Positions 44,835-54,836 of a stretch of 64,000 nt of DNA are shown piece by piece. Position 1 is the stretch's first letter; each line of letters starts with the position of its first letter. The stretch spans positions 195,231 to 259,230 of the forward strand of contig CARJLX010000001.1 in assembly GCA_949001935.1 (NCBI GenBank), in the 5' to 3' direction. The translations under genes were made by a program, and so were the position numbers. Source of the stretch: an uncultured Eubacteriales bacterium. Lineage in GTDB: Bacteria > Bacillota > Clostridia > Christensenellales > UBA1242. The notes beneath the pieces were generated by a model. That model ran no database searches and was not told where the DNA came from. It saw only the letters and a program-made list of their open reading frames with translations.

Positions 44835-44863
44835 TTGAAAACTTAAATTTTATGTGTTATACT
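44835..44863 (+). promoter_or_regulatory. Putative sigma-A promoter with extended -10
   Basis: TTGAAA, 17-nt spacer, TGtTATACT. Confidence 0.45.
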
Positions 44864-44887
44864 TTGGCTATTACAAGAGAGGGTATT

Positions 44888-45664
44888 ATGAAAAAGAAGA
44901 ATAAAAATAAATATATCAAAAAATTACATGCTGACAAACATCCAAAGACTAGAAAGGCAGTTTGCAAGGGGCAACAACGCGAAAACCCAAGAAGATGTAA
45001 AAAATATTATAATAAAATTGCAGGCGATATTAATGAAGGTTATATTTCTGGAGAATTAAACAATATTACATTTGGTTTTCCTGATAATGGTGAACATTTT
45101 ATAGAAACAGCAATTTATGTCCCTAGAACGTCAAACAATGTTGATATTATCCCTGTAGTTTTTACAGATAAAATCTATCAATTATATAAATCTCAACTAC
45201 ATAAAGGAAGGGTGACTTTGATTGGTACCTTTCAATCTGCAAATAGGGTAGTTAATAAGAAAAATACATTATTTAATTATTTTCAACCAACCTCTTTAGA
45301 TTTTGATGAAAATAAATATAAACAACGCAATAACTCTTTACATTTATGTGGAACAGTTTGTAATAAACCTACTTTAAAATGTTTGGAAAACAGCCAGATT
45401 TATTACTTTAAACTTGCAGTGAATACTCCTAATTTAGATAATTATATTCCAGTTTATGTAAGAGCTAAGAAAAGGGCTGGCGATATAATTAAAGATCTTA
45501 AGGTAGGAGATAGAGTAGACTTTTTAGGTCGAATTCAATCTAGGCAATATCATGAAAGCCAGGAGAAAATTAGAACTATAACCGAAATTTCTATTGCTAG
45601 GATAAATAGTGTTGAATATTTAGAAAGCAACACTAAAATCACTTCTAATAGTGAAAATGAATAA
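44888..45664 (+). CDS. Tandem-OB-fold SSB-like protein (paralogue 2) with a highly basic N-terminal extension
   Basis: VDIIPVVFTDK...GRVTLIGTFQSANR and NYIPVYVRAKKRA...VGDRVDFLGRIQSRQY. N-terminus KKKNKNKYIKKLHADKHPKTRK. Confidence 0.65.
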   Translation: MKKKNKNKYIKKLHADKHPKTRKAVCKGQQRENPRRCKKYYNKIAGDINEGYISGELNNITFGFPDNGEHFIETAIYVPRTSNNVDIIPVVFTDKIYQLYKSQLHKGRVTLIGTFQSANRVVNKKNTLFNYFQPTSLDFDENKYKQRNNSLHLCGTVCNKPTLKCLENSQIYYFKLAVNTPNLDNYIPVYVRAKKRAGDIIKDLKVGDRVDFLGRIQSRQYHESQEKIRTITEISIARINSVEYLESNTKITSNSENE

Positions 45665-45738: not shown

Positions 45739-46374
45739 ATGATAAAATATTTTAAAAAGGGTACTTTTAATTATGAAGATATTAACAATGCTTACATTGT
45801 TGGTTGCGCAAATGGTGAAATTTTGAAATTTAGAATTAATGCAGGTCAGATTCTGGTTAGGACTGTTTTAGAAGTTCCAAGACAGAGTGGACGGATTGAT
45901 TATATTCCTATCGCTATTCAAAATGATATTTATATGCAACATGAGGAAAGTATTAAAAATAAAAAGCTTGTTTATAGAGGGGATTTTAGAGGATATCGTG
46001 CAAGAAGGAAATATCAAGGCAAGTTTGATAGTCATATTCTTGTGGATTTAATTGATGAAAATGTTGATGAATACAAAAGTAATAACAATATTGAGCTTTA
46101 TGGGCGAGTGGAATCTCCGCCAAAATTGCGACCATTTAATGATGGAAGTGAGTCGTGTTATGTAAATATATGTGTAGATAATTTAGGCTTTAAAAGTCAT
46201 ATTCCTTGTTTCGCAAAAAATTCTTACAAACAAGATGTAAAATGTTTGCAGGTTGATGATAGAATTTATTTTTTAGGTCGAATTCGCTCGCGTGAATTTC
46301 ATATTCCAAACACTAATGAAACTGCAAACTTTAACGAGATTGAAATTAACAAAGTTAAAGCAATAGAATATTAA
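45739..46374 (+). CDS. Tandem-OB-fold SSB-like protein (paralogue 3)
   Basis: IDYIPIAIQND...KKLVYRGDFRGYR and SHIPCFAKNSY...VDDRIYFLGRIRSREF. GAGGAG RBS. Confidence 0.65.
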   Translation: MIKYFKKGTFNYEDINNAYIVGCANGEILKFRINAGQILVRTVLEVPRQSGRIDYIPIAIQNDIYMQHEESIKNKKLVYRGDFRGYRARRKYQGKFDSHILVDLIDENVDEYKSNNNIELYGRVESPPKLRPFNDGSESCYVNICVDNLGFKSHIPCFAKNSYKQDVKCLQVDDRIYFLGRIRSREFHIPNTNETANFNEIEINKVKAIEY

Positions 46375-47247: not shown

Positions 47248-47285
47248 AAAATATCTCAAGTTTGTTTTGAGATATTTTGTTTTTT
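47248..47285 (+). terminator. Rho-independent terminator
   Basis: aaaatatctcaa / ttgagatatttt 12-bp stem followed by a T-run. Confidence 0.8.
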
Positions 47286-47286
47286 A

Positions 47287-47295
47287 TGCTATAAT
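47287..47295 (+). promoter_or_regulatory. Extended -10 element upstream of ftsK
   Basis: TGcTATAAT located 31 nt upstream of the ftsK ATG. No clear -35. Confidence 0.4.
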
Positions 47296-47325: not shown

Positions 47326-50304
47326 ATGGCTATATTTCAAGTTTCTAAAAAAAATAAGAAAGAAAAAAACACCGCCAATGCTAAAAAAATTACTGGTGCA
47401 ACTATGCTTGGTGTTGCCTCTGTTTTGTTCCTTTTTTCTGTAACGAGTTTATGGCCTTGGGCTCAAGGTGTTATTTTAGGCATTTTTGGGGTATTTATCT
47501 ATCCTCTTTGTATACTTTCTATGATTGTTGGGCTTGCTTTACTAAATAATCGTAGATATGTTATGAGTAAACGTTATGCTGTTTTTCTTTCTTTAAGCAT
47601 AATCTTTTTGCTTGCAATAATTCAACTAATAATCGTTGGAAACAAGTTTAATGTAGAAGGTGTGCAATATTCTTATGGGCAATATCTTGCTTTAAATTTT
47701 ACCCAAAAATGGACAGCTGGCGGAATTATTATTGGTCTTTTGACTACTTCGCTTTTAATTCCTCTCAATTTGGCTGGCACATATGTTATTTTATGTCTTG
47801 CACTTTTAATTTCTTGTGCTTTCTTTGCCGAGGCTTTGATAAGTTATCGCAAAAATGCAAATGTTAATGCACCTGTAAAAATTCAAATTAAAGAGAATAA
47901 AAAGAAAAATATTGATGTGGCAAGGCAAGAAGCAATTAAGCCTAAGGAAGAAATCAATATTGTTATGAATGGTGAAATTCAAGAAGAACTTGATCGTGAG
48001 AAGAATGCCAAAGCCATGGCAGGCTTAACTCGAACTATGACAACAGACAATAATTTTTTTGGAGCTTATAATAGTAAGCCAGAGCCGAAACAAAAAGGGG
48101 GTATTCCTGAAGGGAAAAGTGTTAAGGAATATCTTCTTGAACCCCCAACTGTTGATATGGAAGAGTTTTTTGCAAGGCAACAAAAGTTTACTCGTACTCA
48201 TGCCAAAACTCAACCTCAAACAATTGACATGGGAGAGGCTAAGTCAAAAATAGATAATAATATAAATTCATTGAAGGAAAATGATTATATAAAACCAACT
48301 CAGCATGTTTACGAAGCCCAGTATGATTTCTCACAAGAACAAGCACCAATAAAGCGTGGAAATCTTCCAGAAATTAAGCCTGAAGAGTTATTGTCTGAAG
48401 CTGATAACATAATTTTTAATGCTACTAGAGAGGAACTTGCTGATCTTGGCGAAGATATTTCCTTTGCTAAAAATGATGATGACGATTTTATTATTAGACG
48501 AGATAGCAATATCACAGCAAGAGAAGAAGATATGCACAAGTCTACAAATGACGAGATAAACACTTCATTCACTTCACGAAGTGATGGTTATTTACGCGAT
48601 ACTACAGGTTATTCGCGTGTTAGTGAAAGTGAGAATTTGGCTAGGGAGCGTAATTTAGAAAACCTAACTTCTTTAACAGATCGTAGTGGAAGAGATAATT
48701 TAGCTAGAGGCTTAGACAGGCGTGAAGGCAATTTAACTAGAGATAATGATATGTCTAGACGGGGAGGACTTGAAAATAACGATCGTTCTCGCAGGTTTGA
48801 TGTGTCACAAAATAAACCGCAAGAAAAGGAAGTTAGATTTAAGCCTTATAAGTATTCAAAACCTTCTATTGATTTAATAACAACAGCATCTGACGACCTT
48901 TCTTTATTGAATGGTGAAGTTCCTGCAAAGCGTGTAGCTCTTGAAAATGCTCTTGAAAAATTTGGTGTTCCAGCAAAAGTTGTTAGTGTTGTTATTGGAC
49001 CAACTGTAACTCGTTATGAAATTGCTATGCCAGAGGGTATAAGCGTTAAGAAAATCCTCTCTCTTGATGCAGATATAGCTTATGCTCTTTCAGCTCGTGG
49101 GCAAATAAGAATTGAAGCACCTGTGCCAGGTCGCAGTATTGTAGGTATTGAAGTGCCAAACGATAAGGTTGCAAAAGTTTCTATTAAGGATGTGTTGATG
49201 AGTAAGGAATTTACTATGTCACCATCTCCACTCGCTTTTTCTCTTGGTAAAGATATCACAGGTACCGTTAGAGTTTGTAACCTAGCCAAAATGCCTCACT
49301 TACTTGTTGCAGGTACAACTGGTTCGGGTAAGAGTGTGTGCTTGAATGCTATAATTGTTAGTATTTTGTACAAAGCTTCTCCGGATGATGTTAAATTTAT
49401 TATGATTGACCCTAAACAAGTTGAACTTTCTATGTATGAGGGGCTTCCTCATATGGTTGTTCCAAAGGTTATTACTGATGCGACTAAGGCTGTTAATGCT
49501 CTTCAGTGGGCTGTTGATGAAATGGAGCGAAGATTTAATCTTATCAGTGAGGCAAGAGTTCGTAATATCGATGAGTATAATAAGACAGAAGATGTTGTTA
49601 GTGGAAAGAAAAAGAAGATACCTTTCCTAGTTATAATTTTTGATGAGTTTGCCGACTTTATGCTTGTTGCTAAGAATGAGATTGAAGATAAAATTATGCG
49701 ACTTGCACAAAAGGCGAGAGCTGCAGGTATTCACTTAATTTTGGCAACACAACGTCCTTCAACCGATGTTGTGACTGGAACTATTAAAGCCAACTTCCCA
49801 GCTCGTATAGCCTTTAAGGTGGCAAGTAGGGTAGATGGTGAAGTTATTATGGGTTCTCCTGGTGCTGAAAAACTTCTTGGCTATGGTGATATGCTTTATA
49901 AACCTTCTGATTCTGCTCCTGCCAGAATTCAAGGCTGCTTTATTGATACTCCAGAGACTAAAGATGTCGTTAATTTTATTATTGAGAATAACGAAGAAAC
50001 CTATGATGAAGAGGCATTTAATGCAATTAATAATCCAGGCAAACCTTCTGGTAATGGCAGTGGAGATGATAATTCGGGGATGGATCCACTTCTTCCTCAA
50101 GCACTTAAGATTTGTATTGATGTTGGTGTAGCTTCTACAACAATGGTTCAAAGAAAACTTTCAATTGGCTATCCTCGTGCTGCAAGAATTATTGACCAAA
50201 TGGAGGAGCGAGGTTATATTTCTTCGGCAGAAGGCTCTAAACAGCGTACAGTTTATACAAGTATAGAAGAGTTCTATGAGATTTTTGGAGATACTTATGA
50301 ATAA
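47326..50304 (+). CDS. ftsK: DNA translocase FtsK/SpoIIIE
   Basis: N-terminal TM helices and a long low-complexity linker. Motor: LLVAGTTGSGKSV Walker A, LVIIFDEFAD Walker B, ATQRPS. C-terminal gamma wHTH: ASTTMVQRKLSIGYPRAARIIDQMEERGYIS. Confidence 0.95.
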   Translation: MAIFQVSKKNKKEKNTANAKKITGATMLGVASVLFLFSVTSLWPWAQGVILGIFGVFIYPLCILSMIVGLALLNNRRYVMSKRYAVFLSLSIIFLLAIIQLIIVGNKFNVEGVQYSYGQYLALNFTQKWTAGGIIIGLLTTSLLIPLNLAGTYVILCLALLISCAFFAEALISYRKNANVNAPVKIQIKENKKKNIDVARQEAIKPKEEINIVMNGEIQEELDREKNAKAMAGLTRTMTTDNNFFGAYNSKPEPKQKGGIPEGKSVKEYLLEPPTVDMEEFFARQQKFTRTHAKTQPQTIDMGEAKSKIDNNINSLKENDYIKPTQHVYEAQYDFSQEQAPIKRGNLPEIKPEELLSEADNIIFNATREELADLGEDISFAKNDDDDFIIRRDSNITAREEDMHKSTNDEINTSFTSRSDGYLRDTTGYSRVSESENLARERNLENLTSLTDRSGRDNLARGLDRREGNLTRDNDMSRRGGLENNDRSRRFDVSQNKPQEKEVRFKPYKYSKPSIDLITTASDDLSLLNGEVPAKRVALENALEKFGVPAKVVSVVIGPTVTRYEIAMPEGISVKKILSLDADIAYALSARGQIRIEAPVPGRSIVGIEVPNDKVAKVSIKDVLMSKEFTMSPSPLAFSLGKDITGTVRVCNLAKMPHLLVAGTTGSGKSVCLNAIIVSILYKASPDDVKFIMIDPKQVELSMYEGLPHMVVPKVITDATKAVNALQWAVDEMERRFNLISEARVRNIDEYNKTEDVVSGKKKKIPFLVIIFDEFADFMLVAKNEIEDKIMRLAQKARAAGIHLILATQRPSTDVVTGTIKANFPARIAFKVASRVDGEVIMGSPGAEKLLGYGDMLYKPSDSAPARIQGCFIDTPETKDVVNFIIENNEETYDEEAFNAINNPGKPSGNGSGDDNSGMDPLLPQALKICIDVGVASTTMVQRKLSIGYPRAARIIDQMEERGYISSAEGSKQRTVYTSIEEFYEIFGDTYE

Positions 50305-51616
50305 GCAAGAATTGTTAAACAAAAGAATCTCAGCCATTTCGCTTGGTTGTGATAAAAATAAAGTCGACCTAGAAAAAATGCTAGGTCGACTTCAAGCATA
50401 TGGTTTTCAAATAACAGGCGAGGCGACAGGCGCTGATATAGTTATTGTGAATACTTGTGCCTTTATTGAACCTGCAAAACAAGAAGCTATTTCAACGATA
50501 TTTGAAATGATAGACCTTAAAAATAAAGGTGTTATTGAAAAAGTTATTGTTTCAGGATGTCTTCCTCAAAGATATTTAAATGAAATTAAAGACCAAATTC
50601 CTGAGGTAGACAAATTTATACTTCTCCGTGAAAATGACGATATCTGTCAAGTGATTGAAGGGCTTTATGATGTTAAACAATCAAAAGCTAATGATAAATT
50701 TCAACGCGTTATAACAAGTTCTCCAAGCTTTGCTTATCTTAAAATTGCTGATGGTTGCAATAATGTTTGTGCTTTTTGTGCTATCCCAAGAATTCGCGGA
50801 AGATATAAAAGTACACCAATAGAAGAACTTGTTGAAGAGGCTAAAAATCTTGTTTCTCGTGGGGTAAAGGAGATAATTTTAGTAGCGCAAGATATAACTC
50901 GTTATGGTGAGGATTTATATAATAAAAATTGTTTGATTGAACTTTGCAATATGTTATGTAAAATAAAAGGGTTGGAGTGGATTAGACTTCATTACACTTA
51001 TCCAGAGAAGGTGGATAAAACACTTTTAGATTACATATCTACTAATCCAAAAATTTGCAATTATATCGACATTCCTCTTCAACATATAGATAACGATATT
51101 TTGAAGAGTATGAGGCGTAAGATTGATGAAGAGGGAACTCGAAATTTAATAGATTTATTACATCAATATCCTTCTATTAAAGTTCGTTCTACCTTTATTG
51201 TTGGCTACCCGAACGAGGGTGGAAGAGAATTTAAAAAATTACTCGATTTCTTGAAAGAGGCTAGTCTTGATTATGTAGGGTTCTTTCCTTATTATCAAGA
51301 AGAAGGCACTGCAAGTTTCTACATGAAAGGACATAATAAAAAATTCATTAAGCAGAAGCGTTTAAAGAAGGCTCGAAAGGTTCAAAATGCTATTGCGGAA
51401 GGTAAAGCATTTACCGAACTTGGACAAACTATTAAAGTTCTTGTTGATTTTTTTGACGAAAGCACTGGTGAATTTGTAGGGCATAGCGAATATCTTTCTC
51501 CAACAGTTGACTTTGATGTTCGTTTTGTGGATAATGGAAATATAAATATTTCAACTTTTGTTAATGTTAAGATTTATGATTTTGACGGAAAGAGTTTTAA
51601 AGGAGAGGTTGTATGA
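50297..51616 (+). CDS. rimO: Ribosomal protein S12 methylthiotransferase
   Basis: ISLGCDKN, radical-SAM CNNVCAFCAIP, C-terminal TRAM-like region. The ATG at 50297 overlaps the ftsK stop. Confidence 0.85.
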   Translation: MNKQELLNKRISAISLGCDKNKVDLEKMLGRLQAYGFQITGEATGADIVIVNTCAFIEPAKQEAISTIFEMIDLKNKGVIEKVIVSGCLPQRYLNEIKDQIPEVDKFILLRENDDICQVIEGLYDVKQSKANDKFQRVITSSPSFAYLKIADGCNNVCAFCAIPRIRGRYKSTPIEELVEEAKNLVSRGVKEIILVAQDITRYGEDLYNKNCLIELCNMLCKIKGLEWIRLHYTYPEKVDKTLLDYISTNPKICNYIDIPLQHIDNDILKSMRRKIDEEGTRNLIDLLHQYPSIKVRSTFIVGYPNEGGREFKKLLDFLKEASLDYVGFFPYYQEEGTASFYMKGHNKKFIKQKRLKKARKVQNAIAEGKAFTELGQTIKVLVDFFDESTGEFVGHSEYLSPTVDFDVRFVDNGNINISTFVNVKIYDFDGKSFKGEVV

Positions 51617-52710
51617 ATACACCAAATAAAATAACATTAGTAAGGATTTGTTTAATTCCTTTTATTGTGTTTTTCTATCTTGCAAATTTTATTCCTTGGG
51701 GACAATTTATAGCAGGCACTATTTTTGTTGTTGCTTGTTTTACAGATTTTTTTGATGGTTATCTTGCAAGAAAAAATAATCAAGTGACAACTTTAGGGAA
51801 ATTTTTAGATACAATTGCAGATAAAATTCTCATAATGACAGCACTTTTATTAATTATTGCAACTCCAATTGCAAATGTTAATGGGGTGGCTCAAGGCATT
51901 ATTCGCCCAGAATGGTTTGGAATAGTTTGTGCTATTTTAATTTTAATGCGTGAATTCGCTGTTTCTGCACTTCGTCAAGTTGCAGCAAGTAAAGGCGTTG
52001 TTCTTGCCGCAGAAAAATCTGGCAAGGTTAAAGCCGTTTTCCAATTTATCACACTTGCTTTATATTTCTTCTATGCATTTTTTGTAGTTGAGTTTTATAA
52101 TGGTGAACTGGCTGTTCATAAAACTGCAAATTCAGTGATGGCTATTATTTTACTAGTTTTACTTGCTATTACTACTATTTTAACCATATCTTCTGGCATT
52201 GGATATTTATATAAAAATAAGCAAGCTTTTGTTGACCCTAGAAAGGTTGAAGAAAAATCAAATGAAAACATGGTTTTATTTGTTGAAACTGCTCAAGAAG
52301 AAAAGAAAGAAGATAATAATGTAGAAACTGAAAATGTTGAAACTATTAAATCAACTCCAAAAAGACCTTCACAATCTAAAACTACTACTAAAAAGAAACC
52401 TGCCAAAAAGAAGAGTTATCCAACAGCAGTTAAACCAAAAATAGATTTGGCTAATAGAGAATTTCAATCTGATAATAATGGCAGAGAATATGATGCACTT
52501 ATTCCACAGGCTCTTGATATGTTCTGGGAAAAAGGTTGGGCTTCAACAACAATGCTTCAAAAACATTTAGGCGTTGGTTATCCAAGAGCTTCAAAAATTA
52601 TTGATCAAATGGAAGAACTTGGTTATATCTCATCAAATCAAGGAGCCAAAACAAGAACTGTTTTGATTTCTAAAGAAGAATTTGAAAAAAACGGCAAGCT
52701 TTTTAAATAA
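51613..52710 (+). CDS. pgsA: CDP-diacylglycerol--glycerol-3-phosphate 3-phosphatidyltransferase fused to a C-terminal FtsK-gamma-like winged-helix domain
   Basis: CDP-alcohol phosphatidyltransferase motif DFFDGYLARKNNQVTTLGKFLDTIADK and about 6 TM helices (aa 1-205). This is followed by a K/E-rich linker, then ASTTMLQKHLGVGYPRASKIIDQMEELGYIS (aa 293-365). Confidence 0.85.
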   Translation: MNTPNKITLVRICLIPFIVFFYLANFIPWGQFIAGTIFVVACFTDFFDGYLARKNNQVTTLGKFLDTIADKILIMTALLLIIATPIANVNGVAQGIIRPEWFGIVCAILILMREFAVSALRQVAASKGVVLAAEKSGKVKAVFQFITLALYFFYAFFVVEFYNGELAVHKTANSVMAIILLVLLAITTILTISSGIGYLYKNKQAFVDPRKVEEKSNENMVLFVETAQEEKKEDNNVETENVETIKSTPKRPSQSKTTTKKKPAKKKSYPTAVKPKIDLANREFQSDNNGREYDALIPQALDMFWEKGWASTTMLQKHLGVGYPRASKIIDQMEELGYISSNQGAKTRTVLISKEEFEKNGKLFK

Positions 52711-52735: not shown

Positions 52736-53740
52736 ATGGAATATAAAATTTATATTTTTAATAATGATAAACTTCAAGATATTGATTTTGATTTTCTTGG
52801 CTTACAAAATATTTTGGCTAGTTATAACGCAGATATTTCTGTTTTTACACTACAAAAATTTGATAAGTCTTTAGTTAGTGAAATTATAAAAGAGGGTGGC
52901 AATCTTATCTTATTTTTTAGAAATCAAGATATAGATGATGTTATTTGCGATAATATCAAAATTTTGGGAAATAACAAGCATATTATTGATGACCAAATTG
53001 CATTATTTAATAATGATGATAAAAAAATTGTTTTTGTACCTTATGATCTTAATTGGAAGGTCTTGTTGGGTAAAATTAACTTTAATCCAAAAAGAGGTAA
53101 TAAAACATGCACATTTAAATTGTTTAGTGTTTCCAAAAAGCGTGTTGAAGAAATTCTCAGTGGATTAAAAAATGAAATTGATTCACTTGAATATAGTGTT
53201 CTTAGTCGCAGGCTTCTTGTGGATGTGTACATATCTTATAATGGAACTGACGACCTTATTGATGATAATCAAGTGAAAATTGCAACTGCATTTAGAGATT
53301 TTATTTATAGTGAAAATAGTTTGGGGCTTTCTAGAAGTATTAGGCAGATAGTTAATTTGAAAGGTATTAAACTTGCTATTTGCGAGGGTATAACTGGGGG
53401 GTCTATTCTTAAAGAAATTTGTAGTAATATTTGTATAAAAGAGTTGTTAGCCGAAGGAAGGGTGGAATATTTAAAGGGTGATATTACGGCTGACGAGGTT
53501 TACAAACAAACTTTAACATTATTTGATGATAAAGATAATCAAGATATCTTTGCAATAAATGTGCAAGGTAAGTTTGAAGAAGATGGTATAACTTGTATAT
53601 ACGCTATGGGCAATAAAAACTCGATAGATGTTTATAAAAATACCTTTAAAGTAAGAAAGGAAGAGGCAGTTGAATATGCTGTTGAAGCAATTTTATTTAA
53701 CATTGTTAAAAAATTACGCCAAAATAATTTGTCTTTTTAA
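52736..53740 (+). CDS. CinA-like protein, strongly diverged (call rests mainly on synteny)
   Basis: Sits in the conserved pgsA-cinA-recA position. LAICEGITGGSILKEI resembles the ESCTGG motif of the CinA/PncC C-terminal domain. The N-terminal MoCF-like motifs are not recognisable. Confidence 0.45.
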   Translation: MEYKIYIFNNDKLQDIDFDFLGLQNILASYNADISVFTLQKFDKSLVSEIIKEGGNLILFFRNQDIDDVICDNIKILGNNKHIIDDQIALFNNDDKKIVFVPYDLNWKVLLGKINFNPKRGNKTCTFKLFSVSKKRVEEILSGLKNEIDSLEYSVLSRRLLVDVYISYNGTDDLIDDNQVKIATAFRDFIYSENSLGLSRSIRQIVNLKGIKLAICEGITGGSILKEICSNICIKELLAEGRVEYLKGDITADEVYKQTLTLFDDKDNQDIFAINVQGKFEEDGITCIYAMGNKNSIDVYKNTFKVRKEEAVEYAVEAILFNIVKKLRQNNLSF

Positions 53741-53783
53741 TTGATTTTTGGTAAACTATTTTAGAAAGGATATAGGTGAATTT

Positions 53784-54806
53784 ATGGATAAGAAAGATTT
53801 GAAAAAAGACGCATTAGAACAGGCGTTATTACAGATTGAAAAGGAATATGGCAAGGGTGCTATTATGAAACTTGGTGATCAATCTCATCAAAAGATTGAT
53901 GTGATTCCAACTGGATGTTTAACTTTGGATATGGCACTTGGAATAGGTGGTGTACCAAGAGGTAGAATTATTGAGATTTATGGACCTGAATCATCAGGTA
54001 AAACAACAGTTTCTTTGCATATCGTTGCAGAAACACAAAAACTTGGTGGAACAGCTGCATTTATTGATGCAGAACATGCTCTTGATCCAAGTTATGCAGA
54101 GAAGTTGGGTGTTAATCTTCAAGAACTTTATATTTCTCAGCCTGATAATGGTGAACAGGCTTTGAATATCACAGAAATGCTTGTTAAATCTGGTTCTATT
54201 GATATAGTAGTGGTTGACTCTGTAGCTGCTTTAACTCCAAAGGCAGAAATAGATGGAGAAATGGGTGATAACCATGTTGGTCTTCAAGCAAGAATGATGA
54301 GTCAAGCACTTAGAAAGTTGACAGGAACGGTAAATAAAAGCAAAACAACTGTTATTTTTATCAATCAACTTCGTGAAAAGATTGGCGTTATGTTCGGTTC
54401 CCCAGAAACAACTACTGGTGGTAAAGCATTAAAATTCTATGCAAGTATTCGTCTTGATGTTAGAAAAACAGATACAATCAAAGATGGCGCTAACATTATT
54501 GGAAACAGAACTAAGGTTAAAGTTGTAAAAAATAAACTTGCACCTCCATTTAAAACTGCCGAGTTTGACATTGTTTATGGAAAGGGAATAAGCCAAGTGG
54601 GTTGCCTTGTTGACCTTGCACTTAATGCTGGGATCATTGGCAAGTCTGGTTCATGGTTTTCTTACAATGACGAAAAAGTTGCCCAAGGTAAGGAAAATGT
54701 TAAAACTTATCTTGAAAATAATCAAGACATTTACAATGAAATTATGGAAAAGGTTAAAGCTTCAACAGGACTTATAGAGAGTGAAGTTGAAGAGGATGAA
54801 GAATAA
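53784..54806 (+). CDS. recA: Recombinase RecA
   Basis: [56 protein letters not shown]. Confidence 0.97.
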
Positions 54807-54811
54807 AAAAA

Positions 54812-54836
54812 CTCTTTCGTAAAGAAAGAGTTTTTT
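54812..54836. terminator. Bidirectional rho-independent terminator
   Basis: ctctttc / gaaagag stem flanked by A6 and T6. Confidence 0.75.

Follow-up and report, generated by a model that had tools for sequence, protein, structure and literature searches.

Gene organization of the locus

In the 64-kb window (the whole stretch of DNA that was analysed), the pgsA-gamma fusion gene was located at nt 51613–52710 on the forward strand as a continuous ORF of 365 codons plus stop, and the genes around it were all oriented in the same direction. The upstream genes were ftsK (nt 47326–50304), encoding a 992-aa protein with matches to PF17854, PF01580 and PF09397 (81 bits) whose own gamma domain comprises residues 919–978 (nt 50080–50259), and rimO (nt 50276–51616; TIGR01125, 422 bits). 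rimO overlapped the 3′-end of ftsK by 29 nt, and its stop codon overlapped the start codon of pgsA in an ATGA. The slot of cinA was occupied by an ORF of 334 aa (nt 52736–53740), which had no Pfam match and gave a weak CinA signal only (NCBIfam, E = 6e-6, far below the cutoff), and which was kept at 334 aa in the related loci L081 and L083. It was followed by recA (nt 53748–54806; PF00154, 476 bits), with which the apparent transcription unit ends. The best promoter-like site, judged by consensus match only (11/12 positions, with an extended TG), was found just upstream of ftsK (nt 47267–47295, forward strand), and a bidirectional terminator-like hairpin, with a 13-bp stem and then a T-run on both strands, was located just 3′ of recA (nt 54806–54836). 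Judging from this predicted arrangement, ftsK, pgsA-gamma and recA seem to share a transcript. No Xer gene was present among the neighbours scanned.

The full order ftsK-rimO-pgsA-(cinA-like)-recA was also observed in L081 and L083, and the order ftsK-(~1.3 kb gene)-pgsA was shared, with few exceptions, by those of the 80 related loci listed in which the upstream region was present, regardless of whether the PgsA was tailed.

Domain architecture of the fusion protein

The 365-aa protein consisted of a PgsA core, an 86-aa disordered linker and an FtsK-gamma winged-helix tail; PF01066 and PF09397 were the only Pfam families scoring above the cutoff. The catalytic membrane core, with six transmembrane (TM) helices, corresponded to residues 1–205 (nt 51613–52227), on the evidence of TIGR00560, alignment with S. 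aureus PgsA (7DRJ) and the AF2 model with Foldseek. CDP-OH_P_transf matched residues 1–175 with 123.1 bits (cutoff 22), and the pgsA equivalog model TIGR00560 of NCBIfam scored 132.1 against a cutoff of 109.1. A regular-expression search of the translation located the CDP-alcohol phosphotransferase motif D45-x2-D48-G49-x2-A52-R53-x8-G62-x3-D66-x3-D70 in complete form at residues 45–70 (nt 51745–51822; DFFDGYLARKNNQVTTLGKFLDTIAD), as the original prediction of an ordinary PgsA with an intact motif had held. The core aligned end to end with 7DRJ, and a search of it against PDB sequences returned S. aureus PgsA only. In the AF2 model it formed six long helices (pLDDT 80–97), and Foldseek superposed the model on 7DRJ with a TM-score of 0.76 (E = 1.7e-8). 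S. aureus PgsA forms a homodimer and has six TM helices (PMC8640168). Judged from its sequence, the product of nt 51613–52710 is the organism's housekeeping PgsA, a predicted PGP synthase, encoded in the canonical rimO-pgsA-cinA-recA locus. The tail portion starts at the position of the S. aureus PgsA C-terminus, the extension thus beginning exactly where canonical PgsA ends.

The linker (residues 206–291, nt 52228–52485) had pLDDT values below 50 for residues 220–276. Previously described as a charged stretch of roughly 90 aa, it measured 86 aa, the first half being acidic (net charge -4) and the half adjoining the tail Lys-rich (net +8), and it contained a conserved ENMVLFVE motif. The linker included a Lys/Thr/Pro-rich basic segment at residues 246–276 (nt 52348–52440; KSTPKRPSQSKTTTKKKPAKKKSYPTAVKPK), which may have a role in DNA binding. 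A net charge of +6 to +10 in the tail-side half was common to most members of the window's subclade, and short acidic linkers were observed in other clades with canonical tails.

The tail (residues 292–365, nt 52486–52710) carried an extra C-terminal helix at residues 354–363. FtsK_gamma (PF09397) matched residues 292–352 with 72 bits (cutoff 30.6), covering profile positions 2–62 of 63, and a search against PDB sequences returned FtsK-gamma entries only. The AF2 model of the tail (pLDDT 88–93) was a winged helix that Foldseek superposed on 2J5P, 2VE8 and the KOPS-bound 2VE9 with TM-scores of 0.77–0.87 and rmsd of 1.2–1.5 Å. Both domains named in the original prediction are thus genuine. No match to the alpha-beta RecA-like motor (PF17854, PF01580) was obtained by profile search of the 365-aa protein, indicating that it is not a translocase, and the same kind of search revealed no homology to ParB/Noc or RocS. 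The original prediction knew of no description of the fusion, and full-text literature searches likewise found none in print; a broad literature search for the domain architecture gave nothing relevant.

Residues of the tail at DNA- and XerD-contact positions

The predicted recognition helix H3 corresponded to the AF2 helix of residues 323–335 (nt 52579–52617; YPRASKIIDQMEE). Over E. coli positions 1296–1306 it differed from that of the genome's own FtsK at just two residues, A1299S and R1300K. DNA-contact positions were taken from PMC2680272 and PMC5052618. R1300, E1303 and E1306 of E. coli constitute the KOPS-blind triple (PMC2680272); the equivalent residues were K/D/E in the tail and R/D/E in the genome's own FtsK, and 41% of these genomes' FtsKs have K at position 1300. 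Thus, on sequence comparison, the substitutions at the KOPS-recognition residues are conservative. The tail also kept S1283, Q1288, G1294, Y1295, R1297, A1298, K1318 and R1320 (E. coli numbering).

In E. coli gamma, the XerD-binding face overlaps the DNA-binding face and includes Q1288, R1289, R1292, I1293, G1294 and N1296, of which R1289 is critical (PMC5052618). The equivalents of Q1288/R1289/R1292/N1296 were Q/K/G/P in the tail and Q/R/S/P in the genome's own FtsK. Position 1289 was Arg in 98% of the FtsKs of these genomes and Lys in 83% of the window's tail clade. Two tryptophans in the H1-H2 region (FWEKGWAST) were specific to this tail clade, being absent from FtsK gammas.

No skewed KOPS-like motif was resolved within the 64-kb window, a length too short to decide on its presence. 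Strand counts in the window were 1:0 for GAGAAGGG and 22:11 for GAAGAAG, and the top skewed k-mers resembled coding-strand bias.

Distribution of the fusion and variation of the tail

Of the best 120 homologues from NCBI, ENA, JGI and Logan, 41 carried the gamma fusion, which occurred in about 10 clusters at 50% identity. NCBI and Logan assemblies both contained an identical protein. Fusion and gene order were also kept in relatives sharing 82% and 54% identity, which came from different samples and assemblers, and the fusion was intact in 5 GTDB species representatives. A scan of genome contigs detected it in at least 5 of the 80 related loci listed; taxonomic counts among these loci are lower bounds, the window's own species being absent from them. 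The fusion is ancient and has been passed on within one clade of uncultured Clostridia from the gut.

The tail was wholly lost in many close relatives, indicating that it is dispensable in that lineage. Sister lineages had acidic 'degenerate' gamma-like tails (net charge -6 to -13) that had lost Q1288, R1289, G1294, Y1295, E1303, E1306 and K1318, while the fold was kept and the tails were conserved. The AF2 model of a PgsA with such a tail, built from a shallow alignment, had a core pLDDT of about 55 and was therefore read over the tail alone (about 80), which superposed on 2J5P with a TM-score of 0.76 and rmsd of 1.3 Å. Since these related tails lack the DNA- and XerD-contact signature, DNA binding cannot be assumed for the whole family, and the retention of the fold without the signature indicates that the domain can persist for a non-DNA role. 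Purely acidic and purely basic tails also occurred in the group. More distant PgsAs included CinA fusions (P0171, P0181, P0182 and P0272), and in P0227 PgsA was fused to an FtsK-motor domain. Outside the single-copy FtsK context, gamma was observed in free di-gamma and tetra-gamma proteins, as tandem gammas on FtsK, and in the PgsA fusions.

Origin of the tail and selection acting on it

The tail and the gamma domain of the genome's own FtsK shared 43 of 71 residues by BLASTP (E = 7e-29) and 40 of 72 in an ungapped alignment from the shared Asp, PQAL, ASTTM, GYPRA, IIDQMEE and GYISS being present in both copies. An earlier hand alignment had given about 40 of 67 identical positions and the same motifs. 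As had also been noted, the two copies were diverged at the DNA level (62.6% identity, 139/222; dS about 1.4). In the tree, PgsA tails from different genomes clustered together, outside the FtsK-gamma clade, and the identity between a PgsA tail and the FtsK gamma of the same genome ranged from 28% to 54%. The dS value and the tree placement show that the fusion is old. Of the original prediction of an old duplication or fusion, the old fusion was therefore borne out, while duplication of this genome's neighbouring ftsK was not. A transfer in which gamma moved from FtsK to PgsA was rejected, a high-scoring gamma being still present on FtsK in 6 of 6 paired genomes.

Compared with the close relative L081, the tail had a dN/dS of 0.023, the core 0.053 and the linker 0.52, and identities within the window's subclade were 67% to 96% for the tail and 57% to 89% for the core. 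Purifying selection thus constrains the tail strongly, and no less than it does the enzyme core.

Proposed function and alternatives

With moderate confidence, PgsA-gamma can be regarded as a housekeeping PgsA with an old gamma extension that most likely serves as a weak, avidity-driven tether to nucleoid or septal DNA. The housekeeping PgsA long ago gained a cytoplasmic C-terminal extension composed of a flexible linker and an FtsK-gamma winged helix. Because the S. aureus enzyme is a homodimer of six-TM subunits with its active site at the membrane-cytosol interface, each PgsA dimer would expose a pair of gamma heads on the cytoplasmic side, each on a tether of ~86 residues. Double-stranded DNA is the most likely ligand of the tail, with a probable preference for the short polar motif read by the organism's FtsK, as suggested by an H3 nearly identical to that of this FtsK and by the adjoining basic part of the linker. 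As a monomer, gamma has poor affinity for KOPS DNA and gives way to competitor DNA; in FtsK three gammas cooperate on one KOPS (PMC3384302). Given this weak binding by single gamma domains, the tail would contact DNA with low affinity, driven by the avidity of many PgsA dimers in the membrane plane. PgsA, and hence anionic phospholipid synthesis, would be concentrated where DNA abuts the membrane, candidate sites being the edge of the nucleoid or the closing septum with DNA passing through it, a place where FtsK is active too; seen the other way round, many weak membrane anchors would be given to the nucleoid. The roles suggested in the original prediction, a tether to DNA or to the Xer/divisome machinery or a competitor for FtsK sites, would be compatible with these data.

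Several observations speak against a DNA tether. Gamma as a monomer is a poor KOPS binder, and a PgsA dimer has just two gammas compared with the three per KOPS in FtsK; sister tails are acidic and degenerate, linkers in other canonical-tail clades are short and acidic, many close relatives have lost the tail, and the 64 kb yielded no skewed candidate motif.

A more specific proposal, which we consider doubtful, is that the tail reads the polar (KOPS/SRS-like) motifs of FtsK or docks FtsK/Xer, placing lipid synthesis according to chromosome position or orientation. If true, anionic lipid synthesis would be set by the site and orientation of chromosome-membrane contact, e.g. at a septum closing over the terminus; membrane biogenesis and chromosome segregation would then be directly coupled at the molecular level, in a way undescribed in any bacterium.

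Among the alternatives, there is some chance that the tail is a protein-protein module that docks an Xer recombinase, as FtsK-gamma does on XerD, or the FtsK motor, whereby PgsA would be recruited to the divisome or would modulate, or compete in, chromosome-dimer resolution. Consistent with this are the overlap of the XerD- and DNA-binding faces in E. coli gamma (PMC5052618), the retention of Q1288 and G1294 together with K at 1289, the apparent co-transcription with ftsK and recA, and the existence of the PgsA-FtsK-motor fusion P0227. However, the Arg that is nearly invariant at position 1289 in the FtsKs of these genomes is replaced by Lys in most of the window's tail clade, the genome's own FtsK itself lacks R1292 and N1296 (it has S and P), and the scanned neighbours included no Xer gene. 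Activation of Xer by gamma is not known to be as well established for Firmicutes as for E. coli.

It is rather unlikely that the tail is a regulatory or scaffolding appendage of PgsA and not primarily a nucleic-acid binder, the gamma fold being merely a recruited scaffold for, e.g., autoinhibition, oligomerisation, or contact with the membrane surface or a further partner in the cytoplasm. The degenerate sister tails, strongly acidic and without the gamma signature yet conserved in fold, argue for this reading, as do the clade-specific tryptophans absent from FtsK gammas, the acidic-only and basic-only tails in the group and the CinA fusions of more distant PgsAs. In the window's protein, however, every gamma signature residue is kept and H3 is nearly identical to that of its own FtsK, which is the pattern expected from continued selection for the ancestral DNA-reading function, and the adjoining Lys-rich linker fits DNA binding.

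It is highly improbable that the tail was copied recently from the 3′-end of the adjacent ftsK or is a decaying, functionless remnant: ftsK lies only 2.4 kb upstream and related genomes (L010, L060) carry extra gamma copies directly 3′ of ftsK, but a recent duplication is refuted by the dS of about 1.4, the DNA identity of 62.6% and the separate position of the tails in the tree, and a dN/dS of 0.023 is incompatible with decay. A chimeric assembly at the junction, or a frameshift error in the sequence that joins two genes, is suggested by nothing beyond the general risk of metagenome-assembled genomes and can practically be dismissed, as the original prediction had held, since the intact fusion ORF occurs with identical gene order in independent contigs from other samples and assemblers.

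Comparison with known systems

How bacteria match membrane growth to the replication and segregation of their chromosome has long been asked, and the usual answers are indirect: transertion, nucleoid occlusion and the effects of anionic lipids on DnaA. In PgsA-gamma, an essential phospholipid synthase is covalently linked to a chromosome-polarity-reading domain, an arrangement kept across a bacterial clade, which hints at an undescribed physical link from lipid synthesis to the chromosome. If the tail binds DNA, it would offer a genetically simple system for testing the positioning of local lipid synthesis by the nucleoid, with canonical, acidic degenerate and tail-less orthologues as natural controls within the family.

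With canonical PgsA (S. aureus 7DRJ/7DRK; TIGR00560), PgsA-gamma shares full-length alignment, the intact motif and the six-TM fold, and with that of other Firmicutes the slot adjoining cinA-recA. It differs by a 160-residue cytoplasmic C-terminal extension, comprising the linker and the winged helix, which is lacking in the PgsAs of S. aureus, B. subtilis and E. coli. The fold and the signature residues of the tail are those of FtsK/SpoIIIE gamma (PF09397; 2J5P, 2VE8/2VE9, 5DCF), which is likewise cytoplasmic and joined to the membrane by a long flexible linker. FtsK gamma, however, sits on an alpha-beta motor, whereas the PgsA tail has no motor, no hexamer to present three gammas per KOPS and no ATPase to regulate; its membrane anchor is an enzyme, both R1289 and R1300 are replaced by Lys, and it has two specific tryptophans.

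Fusions of PgsA with CinA and with the FtsK motor likewise join the PgsA C-terminus to domains of genes from the ftsK-rimO-pgsA-cinA-recA cluster, but they involve other domains and are rare and scattered, whereas the gamma fusion forms a conserved clade. The small terminase of phages Sam46 and Sam112 carries an N-terminal FtsK_gamma domain (PMC8190038). There, as in PgsA-gamma, gamma was co-opted from FtsK onto an unrelated protein, presumably for DNA recognition; the partner in the phages is a DNA-packaging protein, already DNA-related, whereas that in PgsA-gamma is a lipid-synthesis enzyme. Noc of B. subtilis and RocS of S. pneumoniae (PMC11500499) combine a DNA module with a membrane element, and PgsA-gamma would resemble them, by functional analogy only, in drawing the chromosome and the membrane to each other. 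They possess ParB-like or HTH domains and amphipathic helices and have no enzyme activity, whereas PgsA-gamma is non-homologous and its anchor is a polytopic essential enzyme.

Domain identity and architecture

The pgsA-gamma gene (nt 51613–52710, + strand) was a single ORF without interruption, encoding 365 aa. Pfam searches assigned CDP-OH_P_transf to residues 1–175 (123.1 bits, cutoff 22) and FtsK_gamma to residues 292–352 (72 bits, cutoff 30.6; profile positions 2–62 of 63), and the NCBIfam pgsA equivalog TIGR00560 scored 132.1 against its cutoff of 109.1, so that the original prediction of a PgsA with an FtsK-gamma tail held under curated cutoffs. The catalytic motif D45-x2-DG-x2-AR-x8-G-x3-D-x3-D70, said to be intact, was read complete in the translation. 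BLASTP aligned the tail with the gamma domain of ftsK, 2.4 kb upstream, at 43 of 71 identical positions (E 7e-29), while an ungapped reading from a shared Asp gave 40 of 72, as against the predicted "about 40"; the five strings listed as shared occurred in both domains, and the copies, described as diverged in DNA, were 62.6% identical. The original observation is thus confirmed in every detail. The parts of the fusion protein are members of known families, with every testable feature of PgsA found in the core and the profile, fold and recognition residues of FtsK_gamma found in the tail.

The core (residues 1–205) matched Staphylococcus aureus PgsA (7DRJ) over its whole length, and the C-terminal extension started exactly where that protein ends (...SGIxYxYKxxxxF). 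In an AlphaFold2 model based on an alignment of 31 fusion homologues, the core had six long membrane helices (pLDDT 80–97), residues 220–276 were disordered (pLDDT below 50), and the tail (pLDDT 88–93) comprised helices 297–307, 312–319 and 323–335, a beta wing and an additional C-terminal helix (354–363). In Foldseek the core hit S. aureus PgsA (E 1.7e-8, TM 0.76) and the tail hit the FtsK gamma domains of Escherichia coli and Pseudomonas aeruginosa, including the KOPS-bound form (TM 0.77–0.87, rmsd 1.2–1.5 Å); modelling, proposed as a check, thus returned a confident winged helix superposing on known gamma structures. S. aureus PgsA forms a homodimer of six-TM subunits, with the active site placed where membrane meets cytosol (PMC8640168), from which we infer that the tail would be cytoplasmic, with two tails per dimer.

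The 86-residue linker had a net charge of -4 in its acidic first half and of +8 in the lysine-rich, gamma-proximal half (KSTPKRPSQSKTTTKKKPAKKKSYPTAVKPK), a polarity kept in most of the window's subclade even though the linker sequence itself was not. Within this otherwise fast-evolving linker, the hydrophobic motif ENMVLFVE(T/N) (nt 52264–52287, residues 218–225) was conserved in the subclade (PgsA homologues P0001–P0005, and P0010 partly) and could act as a short linear motif for interaction.

Gene neighbourhood

The gene order was polysaccharide deacetylase, ftsK, rimO, pgsA-gamma, a 334-aa CinA-like ORF in the cinA position (nt 52736–53740, + strand) and recA, followed by a PBP1 gene on the opposite strand, a MiaB-like gene and mutS. 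ftsK overlapped rimO by 29 nt (nt 50276–50304), and the rimO stop and pgsA start shared ATGA (nt 51613–51616), preceded by GGAGAGG; both overlaps suggest translational coupling of ftsK-rimO-pgsA. Together with the top promoter-like site directly upstream of ftsK and a bidirectional terminator-like hairpin 3' of recA (both consensus matches only), they point to one transcription unit from ftsK to recA. The locus is ordinary chromosomal housekeeping DNA, in which the fusion gene fills the canonical pgsA slot.

The 334-aa ORF had no Pfam match and matched NCBIfam CinA weakly (E 6e-6, 25 bits versus a cutoff of 379); it was of equal length in L081 and L083, two related loci carrying the fusion in the same gene order, and may encode a CinA-like protein that is truncated or has diverged strongly. 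Upstream, a 270-aa protein (nt 44852–45664, + strand) had an SSB (OB-fold) domain confined to C-terminal residues 161–252, behind a 160-aa N-terminal region with no assigned domain; the next ORF (nt 45739–46374) had no Pfam match.

Authenticity, age and selection

An assembly artefact was ruled out, as predicted: the identical 365-aa protein was present in NCBI and Logan assemblies, and relatives P0003 (82% identical) and P0008 (54%) retained the intact fusion and its gene order on contigs assembled independently, from other samples and with other assemblers. Both Pfam domains occurred in 41 of the best 120 homologues.

Tail and FtsK gamma of the window differed by dN 0.40 and dS about 1.4 (saturated), and a neighbour-joining tree built from 137 distinct gamma sequences grouped every FtsK gamma in one clade and left the PgsA tails outside it; together these results exclude a recent duplication of the ftsK end and uphold the old origin proposed earlier. 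In paired genomes the tail was 28–54% identical to the FtsK gamma of the same genome, the window's tail being the most FtsK-like. Since each of the six paired genomes still had a high-scoring gamma on its FtsK, the domain was not moved from FtsK and the PgsA tail is an extra copy.

Against L081, dN/dS was 0.023 for the tail, 0.053 for the core and 0.52 for the linker, ratios that are approximate at the high dS (1.1–1.9); identity to the window's protein across the subclade was 67–96%, 57–89% and 8–55%, respectively. By these sequence measures the tail is at least as constrained as the essential enzyme.

Distribution and related fusions

At least 80 related loci were found among GTDB species representatives, all uncultured gut Clostridia MAGs; those listed came from the guts of ruminants, rabbits, chickens and humans, and those with a genus or family name included Ca. 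Caccovivens, Onthoplasma, Scatosoma, Gallimonas, Christensenellaceae and Pumilibacteraceae. The order ftsK, a gene of about 1.3 kb, pgsA was kept in nearly all listed loci with the upstream region present, and at least five carried the fusion. Searched exhaustively, a set of 1.84 billion representatives (50% identity) gave about 10 clusters fitting the whole fusion profile.

The 353 sequences of the PgsA-core tree had no tail (150), acidic (64), canonical gamma (50), degenerate gamma (47), mixed (26), basic (10) or other (6) tails. Most fusions fell in one clade, intermixed with tail-less, acidic-tailed and basic-tailed relatives, which implies that the tail was lost repeatedly; the few isolated fusions outside it, P0149, P0247, P0169 and P0151/P0159 may be independent gains. 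Close relatives without gamma, such as P0025, P0031 and P0037, had other C-terminal extensions, some purely lysine-rich (e.g. KKKVNKIDKTSTTKNTTKKETTKR) and some strongly acidic (e.g. SEEESQEIIEESQIAEDEQDQLNE). In this lineage the C-terminus of PgsA is a hotspot for the attachment of cytoplasmic appendages.

Gamma itself behaves as a duplicating module. In the representative library, P0221 (362 aa) had four FtsK-gamma domains and P0266 was an FtsK with three tandem gammas. Related locus L010 encoded a 202-aa tandem double-gamma ORF (L010:798–1406, + strand) between rimO and an ftsK that itself had a gamma, in a MAG with a tail-less PgsA; this ORF may represent an intermediate stage of evolution or another route to extra gamma. 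An 83-aa stand-alone gamma directly downstream of ftsK in locus L060 (L060:6431–6679, + strand) looks like a recent local duplication, being closest to the FtsK gamma of the same genome. Other pgsA joinings were also seen: P0171, P0181, P0182 and P0272 were PgsA-CinA fusions (PF01066 + PF02464), joining pgsA to its usual downstream neighbour, and P0227 (541 aa, representative library) combined a putative PgsA core with an FtsK/SpoIIIE motor domain, with gamma absent and a degenerate-looking Walker A (GGPDTGASD).

Recognition residues and proposed function

Both the PgsA and its gamma domain proved genuine, the gamma domain being strongly conserved, flexibly tethered and, by the predicted topology, cytoplasmic. 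In E. coli FtsK, whose numbering is used here, the KOPS-blind triple is R1300/E1303/E1306 (PMC2680272), and XerD is contacted by Q1288, R1289 (critical salt bridge), R1292, I1293, G1294 and N1296 (PMC5052618). At 1288, 1289, 1292, 1296, 1300, 1303 and 1306 the tail had Q, K, G, P, K, D and E, and the window's FtsK Q, R, S, P, R, D and E; the suggested residue comparison thus gave a recognition triple of K/D/E versus R/D/E. Lys at 1300 occurred in 41% of FtsKs from these genomes, and the tail kept S1283, G1294, Y1295, R1297, A1298, K1318 and R1320. Since only A1299S and R1300K separated the two over 1296–1306, the tail plausibly reads the same DNA motif as its own FtsK.

We consider it somewhat better than an even chance that the tail is a weak dsDNA tether of PgsA dimers. 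It would bind dsDNA aided by the adjoining lysine-rich segment; since purified gamma monomers have a weak affinity for KOPS DNA and FtsK uses three cooperating gammas per motif (PMC3384302), tethering would be weak and driven by avidity, and would either bias PgsA to membrane regions touching DNA or give the nucleoid many weak membrane contacts. A protein-protein module acting with Xer or FtsK seems unlikely. Two features were specific to tails of the window's clade. At the salt-bridge position 1289, Lys was found in 83% of these tails and Arg in 98% of FtsK. The two tryptophans of FWEKGWA (nt 52525–52545, residues 305–311; equivalents of 1277 and 1281), within FWEKGWAST, occurred in 66% and 88% of these tails and were absent from FtsK gammas. 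A regulatory or scaffolding role not involving DNA, quite improbable for the window's tail, draws its main suggestion from the degenerate, acidic tails, which had A, S/E, D, D/E, Q, T and D at 1288, 1289, 1294, 1295, 1303, 1306 and 1318, a net charge of -6 to -13, linkers of only 8–10 residues and no Pfam annotation; one such tail was still predicted to be a gamma-like winged helix (pLDDT about 80; TM 0.76, rmsd 1.3 Å to 2J5P).

Comparison with known systems

Full-text literature searches found no account of a PgsA-gamma fusion or of a phospholipid synthase with a DNA-binding domain, in keeping with the original remark that none was known, and named homologues are labelled simply PgsA in database records. 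PgsA-gamma is a real, conserved and apparently undescribed architecture built from known parts, notable to specialists and experimentally tractable, though confined to uncultured gut Clostridia and dispensable within the lineage. A gamma domain outside FtsK has been published in a phage small terminase (PMC8190038). Lacking the motor domain, PgsA-gamma is not an FtsK/SpoIIIE translocase, and although it has no homology to the nucleoid-membrane tethers Noc and RocS, it may, by analogy, work like them.
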